From: Alphaproteobacteria bacterium
Lineage (GTDB): Bacteria; Pseudomonadota; Alphaproteobacteria; UBA828
Direction of reading: 5' to 3'
Length of the DNA: 64,000 bases
Assembly: GCA_965214705.1 (NCBI GenBank)
Contig: OZ243972.1
Location: 1,760,001 to 1,824,000 of the forward strand
A model generated the notes under the pieces. That model saw only the letters and a program-made list of their open reading frames with translations, ran no database searches and was not told the DNA's origin. A program made the translations under genes and the position numbers. This document shows, in pieces, positions 16,534 to 37,273 of this stretch. Position 1 is the stretch's first letter, and the number at the start of each line of letters is the position of its first letter.

Positions 16534-17496
16534 CAAAACTCTTTGCCATTGAGACGGCACGCGCGGCGTGCTCCGGTCGACGGGGCGGGAAAGTTGCGCA
16601 ACGCGATGCAAGGAAAACGGCTTCGCGCGCCGCGGGGCACGTCATCAATTGCTGACGATCCTGGTCACGGTGCGGCCCTCGAGAACGTCCGCAACGTCCA
16701 CCGCCTCCAACGTGCCGTGTTCCAGAAGAGCGGTGGCGAGACTGTGAAGCTGCCCCTTGCGACTGTTTAGAATGTCGCGTGCACGGCGTTCCGCATCACT
16801 CATCAAGAGGCGCACGCCTGCCTCGGCCTCCGCGACCGTAAGGCCGGCCTCGGGACCGCCAAGCAAGTCGTATGCGATCCTTTCCGCCGCCTTGATGTCG
16901 GACGTCATCGCCTCGGTCATCGCGTCATCGCCGCTTGCGATCTCCTCGGCGATCAGACCGCCCAGAGCAATGGCGAGCTCCGCCTCCTTGCGTGCTCGCC
17001 GTGCTTCGTCGTCCAGATCGCCATCCGCTGGAACGCGGGTCACGCTGCCAAGCACGCCCCAGCGCGAGACGATGGTCACTTGCAGGATCTCCCCGCCCGC
17101 CGGGAGAGTGGCGGCGATCAGGGCATGACCGGCCTCGTGATAGGCGGTCAACCGCCGGTCTTCATCGCTGATTTTCGGGACGCGGTTCTCGGAGAGAGGG
17201 TCGATCGTGGCGGCGGCAACCAGCCCGGCCAGCAACGTAAGCACCGCAATGCCGCTGATGTTGACTTGAACGAAGCCGCTACGCGGAGTTAGCGGCGTAG
17301 AGTTCATTCATTTCCGAGGCGTCGCGGGTGCCGTTTGTTCTGTGCGTTCGCTTCCCGGTTGCGTCAGTGGCGCTCCGCCCGTCGGGTGGCGGATCCCCAG
17401 CAGCCTCCCGATCACCAGTGGTTAGCATCGACCCCTGCGACGGACCGTCGCCGGATCGGTCCGGCGGCGCGCCGTCGCGATCCAGGGAGATCGATA

Positions 17497-18375
17497 ATGA
17501 CCGGGACCGCGTGCGACACGAACACCGTCACCCCTCTTCGCCAGCGCATGGAGGAGCAGCTCCGCATCGCCAATCTGGCCGCGAGCACGTCCAAGGCCTA
17601 CATCTGCGAGATCAAGAACCTGGCCAGGTACTACGACGCCTCGCCGGACGAGCTCGACGCCGAGCAGGTGCGCCAGTGGTACCTGGGGCGGATCGACAAG
17701 GGGCTCAGTCCGGGCACGACCAACGTCTCCTTCGCCGCGCTGAACTTCCTCTACATCGACACACTCGGCTGGCCTGACCATGTCGCCGGCCTGCGCTCCC
17801 GCAAGAAGCCCGGCAAGCTGCCGCGCTACATGTCGGAGCAGGAGGTCGAGCACCTCATCCTTGCGACACCCGACCTCCGCCACCGTGCTGCCATTGTCAC
17901 CGGCTATGGCGGCGGGCTCCGCATCTCCGAGACCTTGGCCATCAAGGTCGGCGACATCCTGTCGGAGAAGAAGCTGCTGCACATCCCCTCCGGCAAAGGC
18001 GGCACCGAGAGAATGGCACCGTTGCCGGACATCGTCATCCACTACTTGCGCGTCTACTACAGGAACATCTGGCCGCGTCCGACGAGCTGGCTCTTCTACG
18101 GCGTCTCGCTCGACAGGCCCATCGCAACGGAGACCTTGCAGGCCGCCTTCAGGAGGGCGCGCGACATTGCCGAGCTCGACCGCAGCTACACCTTCCATTG
18201 CCTGCGCCATTCGGCGGCGACCCATCTCCTCGAGCGCGGCGGCGATATCGAGGTGATCCGGGACATGCTCGGCCATCGAAGCGCGAACACGACCCGTCAC
18301 TACGCCCGCGTCACCGGCAAGATGTTCGAGGGCCTCGACCACCCGATCTCAGGCTTCGCAGCGTTGCGCAACTGA
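17497..18375 (+). CDS. Tyrosine recombinase (N-terminal SAM-like domain plus catalytic domain) of the IS91-like element
   Basis: PLRQRM, GGGLRISE, GKGG, HCLRHS.ATHLLE.G, MLGH...TT..Y. Confidence 0.9.
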   Translation: MTGTACDTNTVTPLRQRMEEQLRIANLAASTSKAYICEIKNLARYYDASPDELDAEQVRQWYLGRIDKGLSPGTTNVSFAALNFLYIDTLGWPDHVAGLRSRKKPGKLPRYMSEQEVEHLILATPDLRHRAAIVTGYGGGLRISETLAIKVGDILSEKKLLHIPSGKGGTERMAPLPDIVIHYLRVYYRNIWPRPTSWLFYGVSLDRPIATETLQAAFRRARDIAELDRSYTFHCLRHSAATHLLERGGDIEVIRDMLGHRSANTTRHYARVTGKMFEGLDHPISGFAALRN

Positions 18376-18678
18376 CGGCGCGTGGAGGCCGAACGCGCGG
18401 GCGTGGCGGAGATCTTCCGCCGCGCCGGCGCCGCTTTCCGTGAGCGCCACAAAGGGCGCATCGACGCCGCCCGGCTCAAGGTCATGGGCGCCATCGAGGC
18501 GTGCCGCACCGCCGTGCTCGGCGGCCACATGTACGCCTGCGAGGGCTGCGGGCGCGAGCATCCGCTCTTCAGATACCATGAGCACGGTGGCACCGAATCG
18601 ATTCTGGCGGTTAGACAAGCTCGGAGAGAAGGCCAGCACCTTCTCTCCGAGCGGAATCGTCAACAACGGAGTGGACGG

Positions 18679-19875
18679 ATGTCGGATGGTCCAGACACGA
18701 CCGCGCTGACAGGCGCAAGTAGTAGCACGATTTATGTCGCGGTGGAGATCAGCCTCAAATCGTGGATCGTTGGCGTGCATTGCCCGGATGCCTCGGGTGG
18801 CAGCATCAGCATCCACACACTGGCTGCTGCCGACACGGCGGGACTGTTGGATCTCGTCGGGTCGGTGCGGGAACGGGTGGCGAGGGAGCTCGGCGCCCGT
18901 CCTCGGGTGATGCTGACCTACGAGGCGGGCTACGAGGGGTTCTGGCTTGCCCGCGATATCGAGCGCCGTGACGCGGAGATCGATATCTTCATGAACGATC
19001 CGGCGAGCCTGCGGGTGAACCGGCGCGCCAAGAAGAAAAAGACCGACCGTATCGACGCGAGGAGGATGGTTCGGGCTCTGAAGGCATGGGACCAAGGCGA
19101 TTCGGAGGCCATGTCCTGGGTGCGCGTGCCCGATGTGGACCAGGAGGATGCCAAGCGCCTGCTGCGCGAGAGGGACACGCTGATCAGCGAGCGTACCCGC
19201 GTCAACAACCGGATCAAAGGGCTCTTGCAGTTGCACGGCATCTTCGATCTGGCGCCGCGCAAGCCGGACTTCCTCGAACGCCTCGCGACCGCGCGGACGG
19301 GCTATGGGGCGCCGTTGCCGCCGCGTGCGCGGGCAGAGATTGAGAGGGCGGTGGGGATGCTTCGCCTGGTTGAGGAGCATATCGAGATGATCGAGGCCGA
19401 GAAGAGGGCCCTGCTGAAGGCTGGCCGGAAAGCCCAGGACGCGACCAATCGTGACGGGACGGCGATGATCGCGGCGCTTACGCGCATCCATGGCATCGGC
19501 CTCAATGACGCCACACTGCTGGCTGGCGAGGTGTTCTATCGGGACTTCCGCAATCGCCGGGAGTTGGGCAGCTGGGCCGGGTTGACGTCGGTGCCGTGGG
19601 CGAGCGGAGATGTCGACCACGATCTTGGCATCAGCAAGGCCGGCCCCTCGCATGTCAGGAAGCACATGATCCAGATGGCTTGGCGCTGGCTGAAGCTGCA
19701 ACCGGAAAGCGCGATCACGAAGTGGTTCCACGCCTACGTCGCCAGGGATGCCGGTGGCGGGAGGGACCGGCGAGCGAGGAAGCGGGCGATCGTGGGGGTC
19801 GCGCGCAAGCTGCTGATCGCGCTGTGGCGCTATGCCACCCAAGGACTGGTGCCTGAGGGCGCCATCGTCTCCTGA
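18679..19875 (+). CDS. IS110-family recombinase/transposase
   Basis: RuvC-like AVEIS / YEAG / KTDRIDA (first acidic residue Glu) and C-terminal IHGIG, WAGL..VPWASG, ISKAG, ARKLL. Confidence 0.92.
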   Translation: MSDGPDTTALTGASSSTIYVAVEISLKSWIVGVHCPDASGGSISIHTLAAADTAGLLDLVGSVRERVARELGARPRVMLTYEAGYEGFWLARDIERRDAEIDIFMNDPASLRVNRRAKKKKTDRIDARRMVRALKAWDQGDSEAMSWVRVPDVDQEDAKRLLRERDTLISERTRVNNRIKGLLQLHGIFDLAPRKPDFLERLATARTGYGAPLPPRARAEIERAVGMLRLVEEHIEMIEAEKRALLKAGRKAQDATNRDGTAMIAALTRIHGIGLNDATLLAGEVFYRDFRNRRELGSWAGLTSVPWASGDVDHDLGISKAGPSHVRKHMIQMAWRWLKLQPESAITKWFHAYVARDAGGGRDRRARKRAIVGVARKLLIALWRYATQGLVPEGAIVS

Positions 19876-20220
19876 GGGCACCGGCCGAACGAACGGGAAA
19901 ATACAGGAGGTTCCGACGTGGTCGGACGCGGCCGCGGAGGATGCCGGGCAAGGCGTGTGACCGGGCAAGAGTTGGGTCGCCGCTTGGCACCGTTCTACAG
20001 ATGGGTCCCGCCTCCCGGAACGTCACCACCGCTTGGATGCGGTATTGGGGTCACGGAGCCGGCAAGCGCCGGAGTTCCGAACCGGATAAGAGCTGAGCAG
20101 CGTGGCGGATCGCTGCGTGGAAACGACGTTCTGCCTGGACATCGGCCGCGGATTCGAGTGGAGAGATTGCGAATGCCATTGACGTAGATGAAGCCGGGCC
20201 TTGCGGAGAGAGCTCATAAG
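19876..20220 (+). ncRNA. Candidate bridge RNA/seekRNA region (exact RNA ends unknown)
   Basis: 345-nt structured non-coding region with segments matching the target (19964..19974, 19990..19999) and the circle junction (20041..20045, 20086..20092). Confidence 0.7.
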
Positions 20221-21535
20221 AACTCCTGCCGCAACCGCCACTGCCCCACCTGCCAGGGTCTCGCCGCCAACCTCTGGAGCGAGGAGCGCGCCGGGGACAT
20301 CCTGCCGGTGCCCTACTTCCATGTGGTCTTCACCCTGCCCAAGGAGGTTGCCGCCATTGCCTTCTGCAACCGCAGGGTGGTGTTCGACATCCTCTTCCGG
20401 GCCGTCGCCGAGACCCTGCGCACCATCGCCGCCGATCCCCGCCACGGCGGCATGCGCATCGGCGGCACCGCGGTCCTCCATACCTGGGATCAGAAGCTCC
20501 GCTTCCACCCGCACCTGCACGTGGTCGTGCCCAACGCGGGCTTCGACGTAGACAGTGGCGAGTGGAAGACGGGGAGCACCACCTTCCTCGCCCCCGTCAA
20601 GGTCCTCGGCAGCCTGTTCCGCCGCCTCTTCCTCAAGGAGCTCGCCCGCGCCCACGGCCGGGGGGACCTGGAGTTCCACGGCACCCTCGCCCACCTCGCC
20701 AATCCCGGCGAGTTCCACGCCACGCTTGCCGCCGCCCGGGCCAGGGACTGGGTGGTCTACGCCAAGCGGCCCTTCCGCGGGCCTGAGCAGGTCTTCCGGT
20801 ACCTCTCGCACTACACGCACAGGATCGCCATCTCCGACAGCCGCATCGTCTCCTTCGACGGCGAGACGGTCTCCTTCCGCCACCGAAAGCCCAAGGCGCC
20901 GGGGCAGAGAAAGCCGCGCTACGGCATCGCCACCGTGAGCGCCGACGAGTTCATCCGCCGCTTCCTGAGGCACGTCCTGCCGGACGGCATGCACCGCATT
21001 CGCTACTTCGGCATCCTCGCCAACGGCTGCCGCGCCAGCACGCTGGAGAGAGCACGCCAGGCTCTCGGCGCCCTCGGCTGCGCCGCCCCCGAGGGAAGCG
21101 TGGACGGCGCTCAGGCCGAGCCCGACGAAGAGCCCGAGATCGGCACCGCGCCCGTGGCCTGCCCCCACTGCGGCGGCGTCATGCGCCTCGTCCGCGAAAT
21201 CCGCCGCCGCCATGAGCCCCGCTCGACGCGCGGCCCGCCGGCGCTGCCGCCGACCCACAGGGGGAAACCGTGAGACGCCCGCTCGCTTCGGCCCCGCGCA
21301 ACGGCGCCAAAGCGCCGACGCACGACCGAACCTGTCTCCGCTTGAGCCGGGCTGACAGCCCTCGGCTCACACCCCGCTCAGTCCTCGCAGCGTGCGCCCG
21401 CATGCCTGCCGAAAGACCGGCGCGAGCGTCGATTTTATGCGCAACTCTGCTGCCGGTGGATGCCGCCTGACGCTGACATCAGCGCACTTTCCACATAGCT
21501 CAACTTCGCCTCTCGTGGCCCGCGGCTTCGTTCAA

Positions 21536-21577
21536 AAGGGTTGGGCAGGCTCTCGAGAGAGAGCCTGCCCAACCCTT
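21536..21577. repeat. Terminal hairpin of the IS91-like element (19-bp stem, GAGA loop), putative oriIS
   Basis: AAGGGTTGGGCAGGCTCTC-gaga-GAGAGCCTGCCCAACCCTT, 3 nt from the element end. Confidence 0.85.
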
Positions 21578-21817
21578 AACCTTGGGCAATGTCCAACCGG
21601 CGCGGCACGCTCGTCTCCGGAAAAGCTCGATCCGCAGCGCAGCATACTACCTCCGCTAAACGCAGGGCACCGACGAGTCTCGGACCCCACCGACGAACAC
21701 GAGTCCGGCCATGACGTGGCAGCGGGCACCGCGTCAACCCACTCGAACTTCTCGATCAGAGCACTAGAATGCAGCGCTGTTGTCGCATCGCGCTTCACCA
21801 CGAAGGGAGAGTCTGCC

Positions 21818-27115: not shown

Positions 27116-27637
27116 TGTTACCTCCCTGCACCGTATATGGGCAGCGCCTCGGCGGCGCGCCCTCATGCATGCACCAAACGACCATGCAGCGGCGGGCGCG
27201 CCACGCGCATGAGCGCACGGCGCGGCGCCGCCGGGATGTGAGAGCCCGCCTAGGCGGCGAGCTGCTCGGACTCGGGATCGTGAATGAAGAAGACCTTGCG
27301 GACGGTCTCCTCGATGACCCAGGTCACCTTCTCGCCCTTGTTCGTGTAGAAGATGTCGCCGGCGGTATAGGTGTGGGTGGTGCCGTCCTGTTCGGTCACA
27401 TGGATCTTGAACGAAGCCGCTACGCGGAGTTAGCGGCGTAGAGTTCATTCATTTCCGAGGCGTCGCGGGTGCCGTTTGTTCTGTGCGTTCGCTTCCCGGT
27501 TGCGTCAGTGGCGCTCCGCCCGTCGGGTGGCGGATCCCCAGCAGCCTCCCGATCACCAGTGGTTAGTATCGACCCCTGCGACGGACCGTCGCCGGATCGG
27601 TCCGGCGGCGCGCCGTCGCGATCCAGGGAGATCGATA

Positions 27638-28516
27638 ATGACCGGGACCGCGTGCGACACGAACACCGTCACCCCTCTTCGCCAGCGCATGGAGGAGCAG
27701 CTCCGCATCGCCAATCTGGCCGCGAGCACGTCCAAGGCCTACATCTGCGAGATCAAGAACCTGGCCAGGTACTACGACGCCTCGCCGGACGAGCTCGACG
27801 CCGAGCAGGTGCGCCAGTGGTACCTGGGGCGGATCGACAAGGGGCTCAGTCCGGGCACGACCAACGTCTCCTTCGCCGCGCTGAACTTCCTCTACATCGA
27901 CACACTCGGCTGGCCTGACCATGTCGCCGGCCTGCGCTCCCGCAAGAAGCCCGGCAAGCTGCCGCGCTACATGTCGGAGCAGGAGGTCGAGCACCTCATC
28001 CTTGCGACACCCGACCTCCGCCACCGTGCTGCCATTGTCACCGGCTATGGCGGCGGGCTCCGCATCTCCGAGACCTTGGCCATCAAGGTCGGCGACATCC
28101 TGTCGGAGAAGAAGCTGCTGCACATCCCCTCCGGCAAAGGCGGCACCGAGAGAATGGCACCGTTGCCGGACATCGTCATCCACTACTTGCGCGTCTACTA
28201 CAGGAACATCTGGCCGCGTCCGACGAGCTGGCTCTTCTACGGCGTCTCGCTCGACAGGCCCATCGCAACGGAGACCTTGCAGGCCGCCTTCAGGAGGGCG
28301 CGCGACATTGCCGAGCTCGACCGCAGCTACACCTTCCATTGCCTGCGCCATTCGGCGGCGACCCATCTCCTCGAGCGCGGCGGCGATATCGAGGTGATCC
28401 GGGACATGCTCGGCCATCGAAGCGCGAACACGACCCGTCACTACGCCCGCGTCACCGGCAAGATGTTCGAGGGCCTCGACCACCCGATCTCAGGCTTCGC
28501 AGCGTTGCGCAACTGA
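27638..28516 (+). CDS. Tyrosine recombinase of the IS91-like element
   Basis: Identical protein to 17497..18375. Confidence 0.9.
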   Translation: MTGTACDTNTVTPLRQRMEEQLRIANLAASTSKAYICEIKNLARYYDASPDELDAEQVRQWYLGRIDKGLSPGTTNVSFAALNFLYIDTLGWPDHVAGLRSRKKPGKLPRYMSEQEVEHLILATPDLRHRAAIVTGYGGGLRISETLAIKVGDILSEKKLLHIPSGKGGTERMAPLPDIVIHYLRVYYRNIWPRPTSWLFYGVSLDRPIATETLQAAFRRARDIAELDRSYTFHCLRHSAATHLLERGGDIEVIRDMLGHRSANTTRHYARVTGKMFEGLDHPISGFAALRN

Positions 28517-28522
28517 CGGCGC

Positions 28523-29764
28523 GTGGAGGCCGAACGCGCGGGCGTGGCGGAGATCTTCCGCCGCGCCGGCGCCGCTTTCCGTGAGCGCCACAAAGGGCGC
28601 ATCGACGCCGCCCGGCTCAAGGTCATGGGCGCCATCGAGGCGTGCCGCACCGCCGTGCTCGGCGGCCACATGTACGCCTGCGAGGGCTGCGGGCGCGAGC
28701 ATCCGCTCTTCAACTCCTGCCGCAACCGCCACTGCCCCACCTGCCAGGGTCTCGCCGCCAACCTCTGGAGCGAGGAGCGCGCCGGGGACATCCTGCCGGT
28801 GCCCTACTTCCATGTGGTCTTCACCCTGCCCAAGGAGGTTGCCGCCATTGCCTTCTGCAACCGCAGGGTGGTGTTCGACATCCTCTTCCGGGCCGTCGCC
28901 GAGACCCTGCGCACCATCGCCGCCGATCCCCGCCACGGCGGCATGCGCATCGGCGGCACCGCGGTCCTCCATACCTGGGATCAGAAGCTCCGCTTCCACC
29001 CGCACCTGCACGTGGTCGTGCCCAACGCGGGCTTCGACGTAGACAGTGGCGAGTGGAAGACGGGGAGCACCACCTTCCTCGCCCCCGTCAAGGTCCTCGG
29101 CAGCCTGTTCCGCCGCCTCTTCCTCGAGGAGCTCGCCCGCGCCCACGGCCGGGGGGACCTGGAGTTCCACGGCACCGTCGCCCACCTCGCCAATCCCGGC
29201 GAGTTCCACGCCACGCTTGCCGCCGCCCGGGCCAGGGACTGGGTGGTCTACGCCAAGCGGCCCTTCCGCGGGCCTGAGCAGGTCTTCCGGTACCTCTCGC
29301 ACTACACGCACAGGATCGCCATCTCCGACAGCCGCATCGTCTCCTTCGACGGCGAGACGGTCTCCTTCCGCCACCGAAAGCCCAAGGCGCCGGGGCAGAG
29401 AAAGCCGCGCTACGGCATCGCCACCGTGAGCGCCGACGAGTTCATCCGCCGCTTCCTGAGGCACGTCCTGCCGGACGGCATGCACCGCATTCGCTACTTC
29501 GGCATCCTCGCCAACGGCTGCCGCGCCAGCACGCTGGAGAGAGCACGCCAGGCTCTCGGCGCCCTCGGCTGCGCCGCCCCCGAGGGAAGCGTGGACGGCG
29601 CTCGGGCCGAGCCCGACGAAGAGCCCGAGATCGGCACCGCGCCCGTGGCCTGCCCCCACTGCGGCGGCGTCATGCGCCTCGTCCGCGAAATCCGCCGCCG
29701 CCATGAGCCCCGCTCGACGCGCGGCCCGCCGGCGCTGCCGCCGACCCACAGGGGGAAACCGTGA
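28523..29764 (+). CDS. IS91-family HUH/Y2 transposase (intact)
   Basis: CEGC...NSCRNRHCPTC Zn site, HVVFTLP, LHTW...HPHLH (HUH), YLSHY (Y2), CPHCG. Confidence 0.93.
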   Translation: MEAERAGVAEIFRRAGAAFRERHKGRIDAARLKVMGAIEACRTAVLGGHMYACEGCGREHPLFNSCRNRHCPTCQGLAANLWSEERAGDILPVPYFHVVFTLPKEVAAIAFCNRRVVFDILFRAVAETLRTIAADPRHGGMRIGGTAVLHTWDQKLRFHPHLHVVVPNAGFDVDSGEWKTGSTTFLAPVKVLGSLFRRLFLEELARAHGRGDLEFHGTVAHLANPGEFHATLAAARARDWVVYAKRPFRGPEQVFRYLSHYTHRIAISDSRIVSFDGETVSFRHRKPKAPGQRKPRYGIATVSADEFIRRFLRHVLPDGMHRIRYFGILANGCRASTLERARQALGALGCAAPEGSVDGARAEPDEEPEIGTAPVACPHCGGVMRLVREIRRRHEPRSTRGPPALPPTHRGKP

Positions 29765-30026
29765 GACGCCCGCTCGCTTCGGCCCCGCGCAACGGCGCCA
29801 AAGCGCCGACGCACGACCGAACCTGTCTCCGCTTGAGCCGGGCTGACAGCCCTCGGCTCACACCCCGCTCAGTCCTCGCAGCGTGCGCCCGCATGCCTGC
29901 CGAAAGACCGGCGCGAGCGTCGATTTTATGCGCAACTCTGCTGCCGGTGGATGCCGCCTGACGCTGACATCAGCGCACTTTCCACATAGCTCAACTTCGC
30001 CTCTCGTGGCCCGCGGCTTCGTTCAA

Positions 30027-30068
30027 AAGGGTTGGGCAGGCTCTCTCTCGAGAGCCTGCCCAACCCTT
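30027..30068. repeat. Terminal hairpin of copy 2 with inverted (TCTC) loop
   Basis: Same 19-bp stem; loop TCTC at 30046..30049. Confidence 0.85.
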
Positions 30069-32225
30069 AACCTTGCCCTGGAGCAGGGTGCAGATCTCGT
30101 CGCCCGGATAGGTGTATTCGAAACTACCCGGCGTGCACTGCCAGACACCGGCCATGGTGCGCATGCCGAAGCCGCCCAGATCGAAACGCCCCTCGTGCAC
30201 CGGGTTGCCGTCGAGCACGTTCACGAACGGCAGCTCCTCCAGCGGCGGCCACGGCTCCAGCCCGCCCTCGTCCTTCAGCGTCACATAGTCGAGCATCTTC
30301 TCCCTCCACTCCCTCATCGGCCAGTGAGTTGAGCCATCGTTGGCATCGCAGAAGCCTGTCGGCGCGATACTAGGACATTCTTCACCGATCAGGCGACCCG
30401 CTTTGGAAACGTTTCGTGCCCCCAGACTTGGCGCTCGCGGATCCACGGCAGCGGCTGTTGCGGATCGTCGGATTCGAACTCGCGCGCGAGCCTGTGGCCG
30501 TCGAAGATGGCGTTGGCGATGATGCGCGGGGCGTGACAATCGCCGACCCGATAGACCGCCTGGATGCCTTGGCCGGCCCACTCCGCGTTGCGCGCCTTGA
30601 CCTCGCGGAACACCTTGTCATTGCTCAGCCGTGACGTGCACAGGACGACACTGTCACACTCGAGTTCAGTCATCTCGGTACCAGCACGGCGCGAATACTC
30701 GCCCTTCTTTGGCGTCAACGTCCGAACATAACCGTCCCGATAGAGGTAGAAGATCGTAAGCTTAACTGCATTACCTATCTCAAGTTTATCTGCCCAATGC
30801 AGCGTATGTTGCTCGATGTTCTTTTCGTGCATCATGCGGCGAATATCGTGAATCTCCTCGGTATAGATGCAGTGAGACGCGACGTTATCGAAGTTGGTGA
30901 CGATGCTGACGTCCTTGCCTTGATCGGCAAGCAGCTCCGCCATGCTCACGCCGGTGTAATAGCCCTCGTAGTCGAGCACGACGACGCGCTCGCCGGTCTC
31001 CTTGCCGGCCATGATCTGCTCGGGGGTACTAATTTCCGGTAGCGACGCATCTGCGCCGCCGAGCGGGGCCTGCGTCACGCCGCCGAGGCCGTTCGTCGAC
31101 CATCGCGCACCGGTGGCGAAGACCACCTTGTCGGCGCCGTATTCCAGAACGCTGTCGGCGCTCATCTCGCCGACCCCGGTGTGCACTTCGACGTTCTTGA
31201 GCTTGTCCAGCTGGCCCTGTTTGTAGCTGATGACGCGGCCCCATTCGGCGAGATGGGGGTAGCGCATGATGTCCTTCATGCAGCCGCCGATTTCGTCCGA
31301 CGCTTCGCGCAGGTGGACGTCGTAGCCCCGCTCGCCGAGGACACGCGCGCACTCCATCCCTGCAGGGCCGGCGCCGACGACGAGAACCGAGCACGGATCC
31401 TCCGCCCGCTCGAACTTCTCGGGGTGCCAGCCGCGCCGGTATTCCTCCATCGACGTGGCGTTCTGTGTGCAGATCAGGGGTGTCGTCTGCCACCACTTGG
31501 AGAGGCACATGTTGCAGCCGATGCATTCGCGGATGTCGTCGGTCCGGCCTTCGTCGATCTTGTTGGGGAGGAAGGGATCGGCGATGGAGGGACGCGCGGC
31601 GCCGATCAGGTCGGCCTGCCCGGACTTGACGATCTGCACCATCTCGTCGGGGCTGGTGACACGGCCGGCGCTGACCACCGGCACGCTGCAGGCCTTCTTG
31701 GCTTCCCTGATCCAGGGCGCCATGTAGTTGGAGGCCGTGGAGCGCGAGGCAGCAATTTCCAGCGCGAGCTCGGAGTAGCGGCCGACCTTCATGTCCCAGA
31801 CGTCGCACAGGCCTTCCCTCTCATGGAGCTCGATGAAGCGAATGCCGTCCTCCCAGACCTCGAGGCCGTCCGGCCCGTCCATGGTGTCGACCGAATAGCG
31901 ATAGCCGACCGCACACTCATCGCCGACGGCCTTTTTGGTCGCCTCCGAGACTTCGAGCGCAAAACGGGCGCGATTCTCCATCGAGCCGCCGTACTTGAAC
32001 GAAGCCGCTACGCGGAGTTAGCGGCGTAGAGTTCATTCATTTCCGAGGCGTCGCGGGTGCCGTTTGTTCTGTGCGTTCGCTTCCCGGTTGCGTCAGTGGC
32101 GCTCCGCCCGTCGGGTGGCGGATCCCCAGCAGCCTCCCGATCACCAGTGGTTAGCATCGACCCCTGCGACGGACCGTCGCCGGATCGGTCCGGCGGCGCG
32201 CCGTCGCGATCCAGGGAGATCGATA

Positions 32226-33104
32226 ATGACCGGGACCGCGTGCGACACGAACACCGTCACCCCTCTTCGCCAGCGCATGGAGGAGCAGCTCCGCATCGCC
32301 AATCTGGCCGCGAGCACGTCCAAGGCCTACATCTGCGAGATCAAGAACCTGGCCAGGTACTACGACGCCTCGCCGGACGAGCTCGACGCCGAGCAGGTGC
32401 GCCAGTGGTACCTGGGGCGGATCGACAAGGGGCTCAGTCCGGGCACGACCAACGTCTCCTTCGCCGCGCTGAACTTCCTCTACATCGACACACTCGGCTG
32501 GCCTGACCATGTCGCCGGCCTGCGCTCCCGCAAGAAGCCCGGCAAGCTGCCGCGCTACATGTCGGAGCAGGAGGTCGAGCACCTCATCCTTGCGACACCC
32601 GACCTCCGCCACCGTGCTGCCATTGTCACCGGCTATGGCGGCGGGCTCCGCATCTCCGAGACCTTGGCCATCAAGGTCGGCGACATCCTGTCGGAGAAGA
32701 AGCTGCTGCACATCCCCTCCGGCAAAGGCGGCACCGAGAGAATGGCACCGTTGCCGGACATCGTCATCCACTACTTGCGCGTCTACTACAGGAACATCTG
32801 GCCGCGTCCGACGAGCTGGCTCTTCTACGGCGTCTCGCTCGACAGGCCCATCGCAACGGAGACCTTGCAGGCCGCCTTCAGGAGGGCGCGCGACATTGCC
32901 GAGCTCGACCGCAGCTACACCTTCCATTGCCTGCGCCATTCGGCGGCGACCCATCTCCTCGAGCGCGGCGGCGATATCGAGGTGATCCGGGACATGCTCG
33001 GCCATCGAAGCGCGAACACGACCCGTCACTACGCCCGCGTCACCGGCAAGATGTTCGAGGGCCTCGACCACCCGATCTCAGGCTTCGCAGCGTTGCGCAA
33101 CTGA
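32226..33104 (+). CDS. Tyrosine recombinase of the IS91-like element
   Basis: Identical protein to the other copies. Confidence 0.9.
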   Translation: MTGTACDTNTVTPLRQRMEEQLRIANLAASTSKAYICEIKNLARYYDASPDELDAEQVRQWYLGRIDKGLSPGTTNVSFAALNFLYIDTLGWPDHVAGLRSRKKPGKLPRYMSEQEVEHLILATPDLRHRAAIVTGYGGGLRISETLAIKVGDILSEKKLLHIPSGKGGTERMAPLPDIVIHYLRVYYRNIWPRPTSWLFYGVSLDRPIATETLQAAFRRARDIAELDRSYTFHCLRHSAATHLLERGGDIEVIRDMLGHRSANTTRHYARVTGKMFEGLDHPISGFAALRN

Positions 33105-33407
33105 CGGCGCGTGGAGGCCGAACGCGCGGGCGTGGCGGAGATCTTCCGCCGCGCCGGCGCCGCTTTCCGTGAGCGCCACAAAGGGCGCATCGACGCCGCC
33201 CGGCTCAAGGTCATGGGCGCCATCGAGGCGTGCCGCACCGCCGTGCTCGGCGGCCACATGTACGCCTGCGAGGGCTGCGGGCGCGAGCATCCGCTCTTCA
33301 GATACCATGAGCACGGTGGCACCGAATCGATTCTGGCGGTTAGACAAGCTCGGAGAGAAGGCCAGCACCTTCTCTCCGAGCGGAATCGTCAACAACGGAG
33401 TGGACGG

Positions 33408-34604
33408 ATGTCGGATGGTCCAGACACGACCGCGCTGACAGGCGCAAGTAGTAGCACGATTTATGTCGCGGTGGAGATCAGCCTCAAATCGTGGATCGTT
33501 GGCGTGCATTGCCCGGATGCCTCGGGTGGCAGCATCAGCATCCACACACTGGCTGCTGCCGACACGGCGGGACTGTTGGATCTCGTCGGGTCGGTGCGGG
33601 AACGGGTGGCGAGGGAGCTCGGCGCCCGTCCTCGGGTGATGCTGACCTACGAGGCGGGCTACGAGGGGTTCTGGCTTGCCCGCGATATCGAGCGCCGTGA
33701 CGCGGAGATCGATATCTTCATGAACGATCCGGCGAGCCTGCGGGTGAACCGGCGCGCCAAGAAGAAAAAGACCGACCGTATCGACGCGAGGAGGATGGTT
33801 CGGGCTCTGAAGGCATGGGACCAAGGCGATTCGGAGGCCATGTCCTGGGTGCGCGTGCCCGATGTGGACCAGGAGGATGCCAAGCGCCTGCTGCGCGAGA
33901 GGGACACGCTGATCAGCGAGCGTACCCGCGTCAACAACCGGATCAAAGGGCTCTTGCAGTTGCACGGCATCTTCGATCTGGCGCCGCGCAAGCCGGACTT
34001 CCTCGAACGCCTCGCGACCGCGCGGACGGGCTATGGGGCGCCGTTGCCGCCGCGTGCGCGGGCAGAGATTGAGAGGGCGGTGGGGATGCTTCGCCTGGTT
34101 GAGGAGCATATCGAGATGATCGAGGCCGAGAAGAGGGCCCTGCTGAAGGCTGGCCGGAAAGCCCAGGACGCGACCAATCGTGACGGGACGGCGATGATCG
34201 CGGCGCTTACGCGCATCCATGGCATCGGCCTCAATGACGCCACACTGCTGGCTGGCGAGGTGTTCTATCGGGACTTCCGCAATCGCCGGGAGTTGGGCAG
34301 CTGGGCCGGGTTGACGTCGGTGCCGTGGGCGAGCGGAGATGTCGACCACGATCTTGGCATCAGCAAGGCCGGCCCCTCGCATGTCAGGAAGCACATGATC
34401 CAGATGGCTTGGCGCTGGCTGAAGCTGCAACCGGAAAGCGCGATCACGAAGTGGTTCCACGCCTACGTCGCCAGGGATGCCGGTGGCGGGAGGGACCGGC
34501 GAGCGAGGAAGCGGGCGATCGTGGGGGTCGCGCGCAAGCTGCTGATCGCGCTGTGGCGCTATGCCACCCAAGGACTGGTGCCTGAGGGCGCCATCGTCTC
34601 CTGA
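33408..34604 (+). CDS. IS110-family recombinase/transposase
   Basis: Identical protein to 18679..19875. Confidence 0.92.
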   Translation: MSDGPDTTALTGASSSTIYVAVEISLKSWIVGVHCPDASGGSISIHTLAAADTAGLLDLVGSVRERVARELGARPRVMLTYEAGYEGFWLARDIERRDAEIDIFMNDPASLRVNRRAKKKKTDRIDARRMVRALKAWDQGDSEAMSWVRVPDVDQEDAKRLLRERDTLISERTRVNNRIKGLLQLHGIFDLAPRKPDFLERLATARTGYGAPLPPRARAEIERAVGMLRLVEEHIEMIEAEKRALLKAGRKAQDATNRDGTAMIAALTRIHGIGLNDATLLAGEVFYRDFRNRRELGSWAGLTSVPWASGDVDHDLGISKAGPSHVRKHMIQMAWRWLKLQPESAITKWFHAYVARDAGGGRDRRARKRAIVGVARKLLIALWRYATQGLVPEGAIVS

Positions 34605-34949
34605 GGGCACCGGCCGAACGAACGGGAAAATACAGGAGGTTCCGACGTGGTCGGACGCGGCCGCGGAGGATGCCGGGCAAGGCGTGTGACCGGGCAAGAG
34701 TTGGGTCGCCGCTTGGCACCGTTCTACAGATGGGTCCCGCCTCCCGGAACGTCACCACCGCTTGGATGCGGTATTGGGGTCACGGAGCCGGCAAGCGCCG
34801 GAGTTCCGAACCGGATAAGAGCTGAGCAGCGTGGCGGATCGCTGCGTGGAAACGACGTTCTGCCTGGACATCGGCCGCGGATTCGAGTGGAGAGATTGCG
34901 AATGCCATTGACGTAGATGAAGCCGGGCCTTGCGGAGAGAGCTCATAAG
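34605..34949 (+). ncRNA. Candidate bridge RNA/seekRNA region, second copy
   Basis: Same sequence as 19876..20220. Confidence 0.7.
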
Positions 34950-37273
34950 AACTCCTGCCGCAACCGCCACTGCCCCACCTGCCAGGGTCTCGCCGCCAAC
35001 CTCTGGAGCGAGGAGCGCGCCGGGGACATCCTGCCGGTGCCCTACTTCCATGTGGTCTTCACCCTGCCCAAGGAGGTTGCCGCCATTGCCTTCTGCAACC
35101 GCAGGGTGGTGTTCGACATCCTCTTCCGGGCCGTCGCCGAGACCCTGCGCACCATCGCCGCCGATCCCCGCCACGGCGGCATGCGCATCGGCGGCACCGC
35201 GGTCCTCCATACCTGGGATCAGAAGCTCCGCTTCCACCCGCACCTGCACGTGGTCGTGCCCAACGCGGGCTTCGACGTAGACAGTGGCGAGTGGAAGACG
35301 GGGAGCACCACCTTCCTCGCCCCCGTCAAGGTCCTCGGCAGCCTGTTCCGCCGCCTCTTCCTCGAGGAGCTCGCCCGCGCCCACGGCCGGGGGGACCTGG
35401 AGTTCCACGGCACCCTCGCCCACCTCGCCAATCCCGGCGAGTTCCACGCCACGCTTGCCGCCGCCCGGGCCAGGGACTGGGTGGTCTACGCCAAGCGGCC
35501 CTTCCGCGGGCCTGAGCAGGTCTTCCGGTACCTCTCGCACTACACGCACAGGATCGCCATCTCCGACAGCCGCATCGTCTCCTTCGACGGCGAGACGGTC
35601 TCCTTCCGCCACCGAAAGCCCAAGGCGCCGGGGCAGAGAAAGCCGCGCTACGGCATCGCCACCGTGAGCGCCGACGAGTTCATCCGCCGCTTCCTGAGGC
35701 ACGTCCTGCCGGACGGCATGCACCGCACTCGCTACTTCGGCATCCTCGCCAACGGCTGCCGCGCCAGCACGCTGGAGAGAGCACGCCAGGCTCTCGGCGC
35801 CCTCGGCTGCGCCGCCCCCGAGGGAAGCGTGGACGGCGCTCAGGCCGAGCCCGACGAAGAGCCCGAGATCGGCACCGCGCCCGTGGCCTGCCCCCACTGC
35901 GGCGGCGTCATGCGCCTCGTCCGCGAAATCCGCCGCCGCCATGAGCCCCGCTCGACGCGCGGCCCGCCGGCGCTGCCGCCGACCCACAGGGGGAAACCGT
36001 GAGACGCCCGCTCGCTTCGGCCCCGCGCAACGGCGCCAAAGCGCCGACGCACGACCGAACCTGTCTCCGCTTGAGCCGGGCTGACAGCCCTCGGCTCACA
36101 CCCCGCTCAGTCCTCGCAGCGTGCGCCCGCATGCCTGCCGAAAGACCGGCGCGAGCGTCGATTTTATGCGCAACTCTGCTGCCGGTGGATGCCGCCTGAC
36201 GCTGACATCAGCGCACTTTCCACATAGCTCAACTTCGCCTCTCGTGGCCCGCGGCTTCGTTCAAAAGGGTTGGGCAGGCTCTCGAGAGAGAGCCTGCCCA
36301 ACCCTTAACCTTGTCCGTCCTCTTGTTGTAGTAGGGCTGCAGGAACTGGTTCATGATCATCGAGTCCGAAACTAGGTTCTCGATGATGTCGAAGCCTGCA
36401 TCCCGCGCCCGCTTCGCCGCATCGACGTGCATCTGGATGACGGCGCGGATGTCGTCATCATCCATTTCGCAGGTGCTCGCCAGGGGAATCGCCTCCGACG
36501 GCGCTTGACTGGGCGCACGGCTGATCGCGCGGGATTCACCGCTCTGAGAGTGCAAACCGGCGTAGTAGAGTTCGACGCCGGCCAGCGCGCCGTGCGCGTG
36601 AATGCTGTCGGTTACGTGCCGCAGGCTGATAACGTCGCCTTCGTCCCAAAGGCGCGCGGACCAATGCGGCGAATCATCCGATTCCGGGTGGATCGCGGTG
36701 TACTCGATGAAGACAGTCCCCCAACCGCCTTCGGCCTTCATGCCGCGGAACGCGGCCTGGGTGCCGGGACGATCGGAGCCCGCGCTGTTGCAATGGGGCG
36801 TCTGCCAGAACCGATTCTTCGTTGCTTTTGGACCGACTTTGACCGACTCAAACAAAACGTCGTGTTCTGGATTTCGCGCCATTGTTTACCCCCTCCCCTT
36901 ACACAATTGCGCTTCAATACATTTGTACCTTGTTGGCAATTTAATCTTACACAGAAGAAGCTATCACGCAAGATTCATCTTTGGCGGTGCGAGTGCTGAC
37001 TATTCAATTTGACATCGTCATACGGTCCCAATGGGCACACGCTGTCAGGGACCGTCCGGGCGGCCAGCGGGGTGGAGCGAGATCATAAGGCCAGCGTAGC
37101 GACACGGCCGTTCTCAGCCTCGGCGCTCGATGGTCTGGGCTACCACGAGTCCGGCCTCGAAAAGGGAGCTGCTTCGGATTTAGCCCGGATGACGGAGTTC
37201 GCAATTCGAGTATTCTGTTGAGGGAAGGCCGCTCGCGCGCGCCGCGCGCGACAACTCTATACGCCTCTCAAGA

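Follow-up and report, generated by a model that had tools for sequence, protein, structure and literature searches.

The window, a 64-kb stretch of DNA, contains an element that is very probably an autonomous member of the IS110 family with an IS1111-type layout, in which a 3' guide RNA specifies TCTAC/AACTCTTGCC (a slash within a sequence or motif marks the insertion point) and which has repeatedly inserted at the zinc-motif boundary of an IS91-family transposase gene. In the proposed mechanism, the 3' non-coding region would encode a guide RNA of the seekRNA or bridge RNA kind, which would be made and then bound by the transposase. Right of the crossover, a 10-nt guide would pair with the top strand, and on the left a 5-nt guide, followed by AG, would pair with the bottom strand. 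Sites with up to two mismatches to the specified word would be used by the element, and its natural target would be the boundary between the (Y/F) and N codons of the (Y/F)NSCRNRHCP zinc motif in one IS91 lineage. Insertion there has taken place repeatedly, in a constant orientation and without target duplication, and cuts the zinc domain in two. The element would presumably move via a circle, and life inside other transposons may be a selected habit. The features of the window are listed in Table 1.

Table 1. Positions of the element, its host IS91-family unit, the target halves and the predicted guide RNA features in the window
Feature	Position	Strand	Description
Host IS91-family unit	17266..21583	+	2,668 bp minus the insert
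Tyrosine integrase of the host unit	17335-18375	+	Phage_integrase domain; upstream of the split transposase
Split IS91 transposase	18382-18570 and 20221-21273	+	Halves of Zn_Tnp_IS91, and Y2_Tnp
Left target half, TCTTC	18566..18570	+	Codons xTC TTC = L-F
IS110-family element, copy 1	18571..20220	+	1,650 bp; ends set against uninterrupted host copies
Left end of the element	18571..18583	+	7-nt extension AGATACC, then short subterminal repeat ATGAGC
DEDD transposase gene	18679..19875	+	398 aa; PF01548 and PF02371
3' non-coding region, presumed guide (seek/bridge) RNA gene	19876..20220	+	345 nt; conserved blocks
Predicted target-binding loop	19952..20012	+	RNAalifold consensus, 11 sequences
Predicted outer stem of the target loop	19952-19962 / 20004-20012	+	Pairs 2-62, 3-61 and 9-57 covary
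Right-target guide, GGCAAGAGUU	19964..19973	+	Complementary to the top strand of AACTCCTGCC at 9/10 positions, with a single A.C mismatch
Predicted inner hairpin stem of the target loop	19975-19977 / 19989-19991	+	Pair 26-40 covaries
Left-target guide, UCUAC plus AG	19994..20000	+	Pairs with the bottom strand of TCTTC, 4/5; perfect for TCTAC
Candidate donor guide, AUAAGAG	20086..20092	+	Equals the right end, the shared A and the first G of the left end
Right end of the element	20212..20220	+	GCTCAT, then AAG; mirrors the left repeat ATGAGC
Right target half, AACTCCTGCC	20221..20230	+	N-S-C-R
Empty target site, CCGCTCTTCAACTCCTGC	28703..28720	+	Within the intact IS91 copy 27407-30074
IS110-family element, copy 2	33300..34949	+	Within the IS91 copy 31995-36312, whose SNP variant differs from the host of the first copy

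The transposase of the element has both domains that define the IS110 family, an N-terminal DEDD/RuvC-like domain (PF01548, 33 bits with a cut-off of 29) and a C-terminal Transposase_20 domain (PF02371, 45.8 bits with a cut-off of 21.3). Insertion is also of the kind expected of the family, being into one site and in one orientation at 19 of 22 loci, with only a single A shared at the junctions. Since this A is common to the element and the target, the limits 18572-20221 are equally possible for the first copy. A second, identical copy is located at 33300-34949 on the + strand of the window. The 345 nt 3' of the stop codon, against 108 nt 5' of the start codon, place the element with the IS1111 type, and blocks of this non-coding region are conserved in relatives with only 53-57% amino acid identity in the transposase.

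IS1111-type seekRNA elements have been described, in the parts of the source drawn on here, as having terminal extensions of 7 and 3 nt, subterminal repeats of 11-13 bp, transposases of 330-350 aa and a non-coding region downstream of the gene, in which the match to the top strand is 5' of the match to the bottom strand (PMC11187229). The element shares the DEDD transposase and the downstream non-coding region with ISEc11, ISXne4, ISKpn4 and ISPa11 as presented there (Siddiquee et al. 2024, PMC11187229), and the matches that meet at the insertion point, the order of these matches and the extensions of 7 nt and 3 nt are alike as well. In contrast to these elements, the subterminal repeat ATGAGC is 6 bp long (or 7 of 8), and the transposase, at 398 aa, is longer.

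The target element belongs to the IS91 family, as its gene encodes a Y2_Tnp domain (PF04986, 184 bits) downstream of the zinc domain. The insert cuts Zn_Tnp_IS91 (PF14319) into profile positions 1-48 and 50-90. Where the host gene is present without an insert elsewhere in the genome, it reads CCGCTCTTCAACTCCTGC, which encodes P-L-F-N-S-C, and the insertion point is exactly between the F and N codons (PLF/NSC). The element is flanked by ...CCGCTCTTC on the left and AACTCCTGC... on the right.

The genome (G000) contains about 98 copies or fragments of the 2.67-kb unit of integrase and IS91, with 98-100% identity, and the IS110-type element was found at 22 loci. In 18 of these the element occupies this one site in the main IS91 lineage, with three of the 18 elements interrupted in turn, and one (L051) is in a divergent IS91-like gene with Zn_Tnp_IS91 on both flanks. 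The remaining loci are v86, a variant whose own guides match the IstB gene in which it is inserted, a 96.7% variant in the Walker-A codons of another IstB gene, inserted antisense, and a 3' fragment with an unplaced flank (v89). The main lineage has 92 copies in which the site region is kept, and 18 of these are occupied while 74 are empty. Counting L057 and L058, which are two of the five close relatives (L054-L058) recovered in a metagenome scan, the IS91 site has been hit in at least four distinguishable IS91 lineages.

The fixed site would say little about targeting if a single insertion into IS91 had been followed by copying of the composite IS91::IS in trans by intact IS91 transposases. 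In line with such copying, 14 element copies are 100% identical, occupied IS91 copies have kept their ends intact, transposase could come from about 70 intact IS91 copies and one IS91 variant is common to three occupied copies. However, the 15 occupied near-full IS91 copies represent 12 SNP variants, with empty copies occurring in 7 of these, and the two copies in the window are themselves in different variants; this scatter refutes composite copying as the sole cause, although gene conversion among the copies could blur the argument from variants, so that some copying of the composite may have taken place. Diverged forms of the element (96% and 92% nucleotide identity) are likewise found in IS91, and the hosts further include the different IS91-like gene of L051 and the two additional IS91 variants that hold L057 and L058 in other samples. 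In one occupied copy there is also a group II intron 11 bp upstream. Composite copying is an improbable explanation of the pattern, and the distribution of variants and hosts argues for repeated targeted insertion and not for one event.

Within the IS91 gene, a second kind of RNA-guided element, the group II intron, strikes the same 20 bp. A 4.1-kb insert of the group II intron type is located 11 bp upstream of the IS110 site (L052:1409-5526, G000:C1:791409-795525) and has two reverse-transcriptase ORFs, which run antisense to the IS91 gene and one of which encodes a group II intron maturase domain. A related 5.6-kb insert at G000:C3:1609612-1615235 is again 11 bp upstream of the site, and the IS91 copy at C1:4022019-4025028 holds both a group II-type insert and an IS110-type element.

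Other rearrangements were seen around the element. Inserts of 2.75 kb interrupt three IS110-type copies (L053:1196-3948, which is G000:C2:520095-522848; C3:687935-690688; and C3:1715127-1717880). The L053 insert encodes an IS66-family transposase, ends in terminal inverted repeats and comes with an 8-bp duplication, CATGATCC, so that this locus reads as a three-deep nesting of IS66 in the IS110-type element in IS91. At G000:C1:1873056-1874857, inside IS91, the last 165 nt of a full element (from approximately position 1486) are repeated directly behind it, which by sequence is a tandem duplication of the right end. Six of the 74 empty main-lineage copies are mutated within the 18-nt site (G000:C2:15222-15548 and five others), where AAC at the insertion point is precisely missing in one copy, TGC is changed to TAC with loss of the Cys in two, TTC to TCC in two and CTC to CTT in one. 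These could be excision scars or escape variants, with six cases in copies that are non-independent. The genome as a whole is unusually rich in IS and has, besides the main unit, three further IS91 lineages and at least four IS110-family lineages. Among contigs from sequencing runs, the left IS91-IS junction is spanned in X1, X2 and X8, and the empty site is present in X1, X2 and X9. No joint of the right and left ends of the element, as in a circle, was listed among these assembled contigs. These runs were not counted as independent because at least X9 holds the flank of the v89 fragment, and they may come from the same or near-identical strains.

The two segments proposed as guides are present in the non-coding region as GGCAAGAGTT at 19964-19973, the reverse complement of AACTCTTGCC, and as CCGTTCTACAG at 19990-20000. 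The original prediction had read them as guides to the interrupted gene that together spell P-F-Y-N-S-C in its frame. Its letters and positions are borne out by the sequence, and the empty copies confirm that the insert is between PLF and NSC. The joined reading holds for the TCTAC/AACTCTTGCC part, which guides, and does not hold for the P and F codons, which are constant scaffold. The first four letters of the left guide as predicted, CCGT, are scaffold and not a guide because they are constant in variants with unrelated targets. The specified word is approximately TCTAC/AACTCTTGCC, or about 15 of the 18 letters of the prediction. Against the resident target, the left guide has one A.A mismatch, at the Phe codon TTC, and the A.C mismatch of the right guide is at the Ser codon, where TCT is expected and TCC is present. 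The mismatch at the Ser codon occurs in every IS91 target seen, and no perfect IS91 target was seen among them. When the 345-nt region was mononucleotide-shuffled 20,000 times, 8 of the shuffles contained a guide pair of equal quality and spacing, with at least 9/10 matches to the right half and at least 6/7 across the left junction. The segment complementary to the top strand is 5' of the one complementary to the bottom strand, which is the IS1111-type order, and both are observed to covary with the target.

Natural re-aiming in relatives is the main evidence that both segments act as guides, and as far as comparison of sequences can go it is decisive. All relatives are built alike, with two slots that vary in an otherwise constant frame, GUGUGRCCG-[N7+3]-hairpin-CCG(U)-[N5]-AGAUGGG. 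The variable 7 nt of the right guide change along with the right flank in v86, L043, L034, L017 and o5, and the 5 nt of the left guide change along with the left flank in v86, o3, o4, o5, L017 and L034. The v86 copy (C3:483687, in the same genome, 86% nucleotide identity) has the guides AAUAGGCGUU and UCCAU and is located between ..TCCAC and (A)ACGCCTATC in an IstB gene (PF01695, E 6e-61). L043, from a Defluviicoccus MAG record and with 88% amino acid identity, has the guides ACCACCAGUU and UCUAU and is located between ..TCTAC and AACTGGTGGA in a DDE_Tnp_1 transposase gene. More distant relatives with 53-55% amino acid identity (L034, L017, o3, o4 and o5) have their own guides, each of which fits its own flanks. 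In the cognate pairs tabulated, 8-10 of 10 positions of the right guide and 4-5 of 5 positions of the left guide are Watson-Crick pairs, and the remainder are mostly U.G. Re-aiming between these variants parallels that between the close relatives ISEc11 and ISXne4 among the IS1111-type elements, as far as the source was drawn on (PMC11187229).

Three metagenomic relatives, L054-L056 (93% amino acid identity), are at the DDE_Tnp_1 site of L043 with a right guide that is one letter off the IS91 guide and matches their own flank at only 7 of 10 positions. This suggests, from the letters of the guides and sites, movement between two targets that have TCTAC/AACT..TG in common. The right junction of v86 (L050, G000:C3:485324-485340) is one A shorter than in the two IstB homologues that have no insert (GTCCACAACGCC), which is either an imprecise event or a later loss of 1 nt.

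The 96.7% variant at G000:C3:428450-430086 (L049) has the guides of the window and is inserted in the codons for GTGKS of the IS21 IstB gene. At this site the guide is matched at 10 of 10 positions in the right half, or 12 of 13 when the match is extended, and at 2 of 5 in the left half. Judged by these matches, it looks like a natural half-match off-target insertion, of which this is a single case. Half-match recombination has been described for IS621 (Xie et al., bioRxiv 10.64898/2026.08.31.748434), and L049 can be likened to it, with the difference in kind that it is one natural insertion.

Several of the copies also have reading frames that run in from the host gene. In the window, the frame 18382-19875 is open throughout and joins the IS91 start codon, the 108-nt left end and the element transposase into 497 aa. 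Open frames of 499 aa are present in 14 of 15 copies that are identical across the full 398 aa, and in v86 an open frame of 748 aa runs from IstB into the transposase. The left end of L043 and L054-L056 is 109 nt long and is therefore out of frame with the host gene. Read-through expression of the transposase from the host gene is possible given these frames. The transposase gene also has its own GGAG 8 nt ahead of the ATG.

The RNAalifold consensus of 11 non-coding regions predicts a target-binding loop in which both guides are on opposite strands of one internal loop. Compensatory changes on both sides are observed in 7 of the 29 predicted pairs, including pairs in the outer stem and the inner hairpin (Table 1). 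The single-sequence fold of 19925-20125 is no better than shuffles (z = -0.69), and its minimum-energy structure, in which the right guide is buried, was replaced by the alignment fold. An Rfam scan of 18300-20400 with E up to 1 gave four sub-threshold chance hits, none of them relevant. There may also be a second loop. ATAAGAG occurs together with the right end CATAAG, and ATAAAAGG (as RNA, AUAAAAGG) occurs together with the right end CATAAA across relatives, which suggests a donor-reading loop as in bridge RNAs; AUAAGAG is the only candidate guide that tracks the right end. GGUAU was considered as the partner donor guide for the left end ATACC and was rejected because its variable letter covaries with hairpin column 79 (pair 79-94).

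The element resembles IS621 in several of these respects, within the portion of the bridge RNA work drawn on here (Durrant et al. 2024, PMC11208160). In the bridge RNA the strands of one loop read the target halves on opposite DNA strands, as predicted for the element, and a donor-reading loop is present, of which the element shows hints, with only half assigned. Mismatch tolerance and off-target insertions are reported for IS621 and are likewise found here. Unlike in IS621, the RNA gene of the element is 3' and not 5' of the transposase gene, the order of the guides is reversed, and the shared core looks like a single A instead of CT (PMC11208160).

The original prediction also held that the guide fits the Tyr consensus of the IS91 family better than the Phe of the resident copy, and this agrees with the relatives and the family. 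The left guide UCUAC has a mismatch to TTC (Phe) and is perfect to TAC (Tyr). L057 and L058 (95% amino acid identity) have the same right guide as the window and are in IS91 genes that read CCGCTCTAC/AACTCCTGC, or P-L-Y/N-S-C, with the host codons CTC TAC/AAC TCC TGC; further downstream, the sequences of their host genes diverge. In a phylum-wide sample that includes G000, the IS91 zinc domain was found in 18 of 121 genomes. The motif was unreadable at 12 of the 30 IS91-family loci, which were left out of the residue and mismatch counts, and 13 readable sites come from other genomes. The motif residue at these 13 sites is Tyr in 11, Phe in one and another residue in one, with five YNSC and six YHSC among them. 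From these codons, the guide is nearer to the majority codon of the family than to the resident copy. Five of the 13 sites, from two genomes, have at most two mismatches to the 14-nt word, and one has at most one; therefore, codon conservation would give the guide some reach beyond one lineage.

This reach is narrow at the nucleotide level, as judged from word searches. Across 400 further genomes from the class, TCTWCAACTCYTGC, a degenerate form of the word, falls inside an IS91 gene in only one (G202). Thirty matches were examined, of which 28, among them all five perfect matches to TCTACAACTCTTGC, are in unrelated sequence. A reversed-pattern control gave similarly scattered matches in the 400 class genomes. 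The three other IS91 lineages of the genome, with 3, 2 and 12 copies (17 in total), are uninterrupted at the site and none of them flanks any of the 22 loci; two of the three have at least four mismatches there. The claim that the guide is aimed at the (Y/F)NSC codons of IS91 is thus upheld in part: the 19 loci at the site, together with L057 and L058, agree with it, while the rarity of the word, in 1 of 400 class genomes, limits it. Insertion into unrelated sequence with this guide, which would count against the claim, was found at one of the 22 loci, and there the right half is perfect. The further proposals of the prediction would go beyond targeting: IS91 may serve the element as a safe harbour and a vehicle, and disabling its host may be a strategy.

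The same observations bear on whether the guide was instead tuned to one narrow IS91 lineage, an ancestral copy of the Tyr type, so that the mismatches are tolerated drift and the likeness to the family motif is a by-product. The word searches are in keeping with this, since TCTWCAACTCYTGC is within IS91 in G202 only and none of the five perfect TCTACAACTCTTGC matches is in IS91. So are the three unoccupied lineages in the same genome and the absence of a close relative of the element, the best having 57% amino acid identity, from G202, G140 and G466, which have near-matching IS91 sites. Against it, the five phylum-wide sites are as close to the guide as the resident site or closer. Tuning to a narrow lineage is a substantial possibility, with a probability clearly below even.

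The nameable targets of the relatives are all genes of transposition. By Pfam, the IS91 zinc finger is the target of the window type, L051, L057 and L058 (Zn_Tnp_IS91, with L057 and L058 assigned by flanking codons alone), and IstB of IS21 (PF01695) is the target of v86 and of the 96.7% off-target variant. A DDE_Tnp_1 transposase is the target of L043 (28.6 bits) and, by matching flanks, of L054-L056. An IS110-family transposase is the target of o5 (E 1e-23) and, by a similar flanking frame, of o6, and the IS3 integrase core (rve) is the target of L034, at DIT/Y (E 2e-11). The flank of o4 has a DDE match below the cut-off, and no recognisable transposon family was found by Pfam in the flanks of o3, o7, L017 and L031. 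The orientation relative to the target gene is mixed across relatives.

Close relatives of the element are few. L043 was the only one found in the species genomes, and no relative above 55% amino acid identity was found outside G000 in the 49 genomes of the order, G000 included. In the plasmid collection, a distant DNA search gave four records, none with 80% or more of the element covered and the best with 21%.

It is tentatively proposed, at a little less than even probability, that the clade, down to approximately 53% transposase identity, consists of RNA-guided parasites of other transposons, whose guides may have been repeatedly re-aimed at conserved motif codons. Such codons would be those of the IS91 zinc finger, the C-terminal motif of IstB, the catalytic motif DIT/Y of IS3, the IS110 transposase and the C-terminus of DDE_Tnp_1. 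Targets in transposon genes could result from selection for sites that are multi-copy, harmless and conserved, or from plain survivorship. A related explanation has no specialisation on transposons, with guides that wander and insertions that survive where they are harmless and where identical targets are many, in practice in other IS. The variety of the targets (IS91, IS21 IstB, DDE_Tnp_1, IS3 rve and IS110 transposase), in both orientations, the flanks of o3, o7, L017 and L031 without a recognisable transposon gene and a genome packed with IS all suit it. However, the hits fall on motif codons (zinc finger, IstB C-terminal motif, IS3 DIT/Y) and not anywhere in the genes, a pattern that is expected from selection for durable and transferable targets. 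The explanation is also compatible with the targeted insertion proposed above, as it accounts for the persistence of the guides and not for how they work. Wandering without specialisation is rather unlikely.

RNA-guided target choice and natural re-aiming are established for the IS110/IS1111 family in the sources as drawn on here (PMC11187229; PMC11208160). The targets presented there for IS1111-type elements are a linear site, attC sites and REP, whereas the target of the present element is a protein-coding motif of a transposase (PMC11187229). The literature search, judged on titles, abstract openings and text passages, found no description of a coding-motif target in an IS91 transposase or of a clade-wide pattern. 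The seekRNA and bridge-RNA papers give target logos for hundreds of elements in their supplements, and these may bear on the matter.

Other members of the family have specific targets inside another mobile element. IS1383 reportedly inserts into the inverted repeats of IS1384, a result that is attributed to Muller et al., and IS4321 and IS5075 are said to insert into the terminal repeats of Tn21-type transposons. These IS110/IS1111-family elements are like the present one in having a specific target within a mobile element. In contrast to their non-coding terminal repeats, the target here is in the transposase frame, at zinc-finger codons, and the gene is inactivated.

RNA-guided IS110/IS1111 elements are being studied intensively for use in genome writing, and this locus supplies a series of guides that were re-aimed in nature, each with its cognate target. 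The tolerated mismatches, with 18 insertions at a two-mismatch site and one natural half-match off-target, bear on the specificity rules for an IS1111-like, 3'-encoded guide with a target code of 10+5 nt. The element is also a case of transposon-on-transposon parasitism aimed at coding motifs and not at terminal repeats, and approximately one fifth of the copies of an IS91 family of roughly 90 copies have been knocked out by it in this genome. If the tentative reading of the clade is true, its motif codons would be targets that exist in many copies, can be hit without harm to the cell and are conserved from host to host. The IS carriers would then be both ridden and knocked out, and the elements may limit the spread of IS in transposon-rich genomes.
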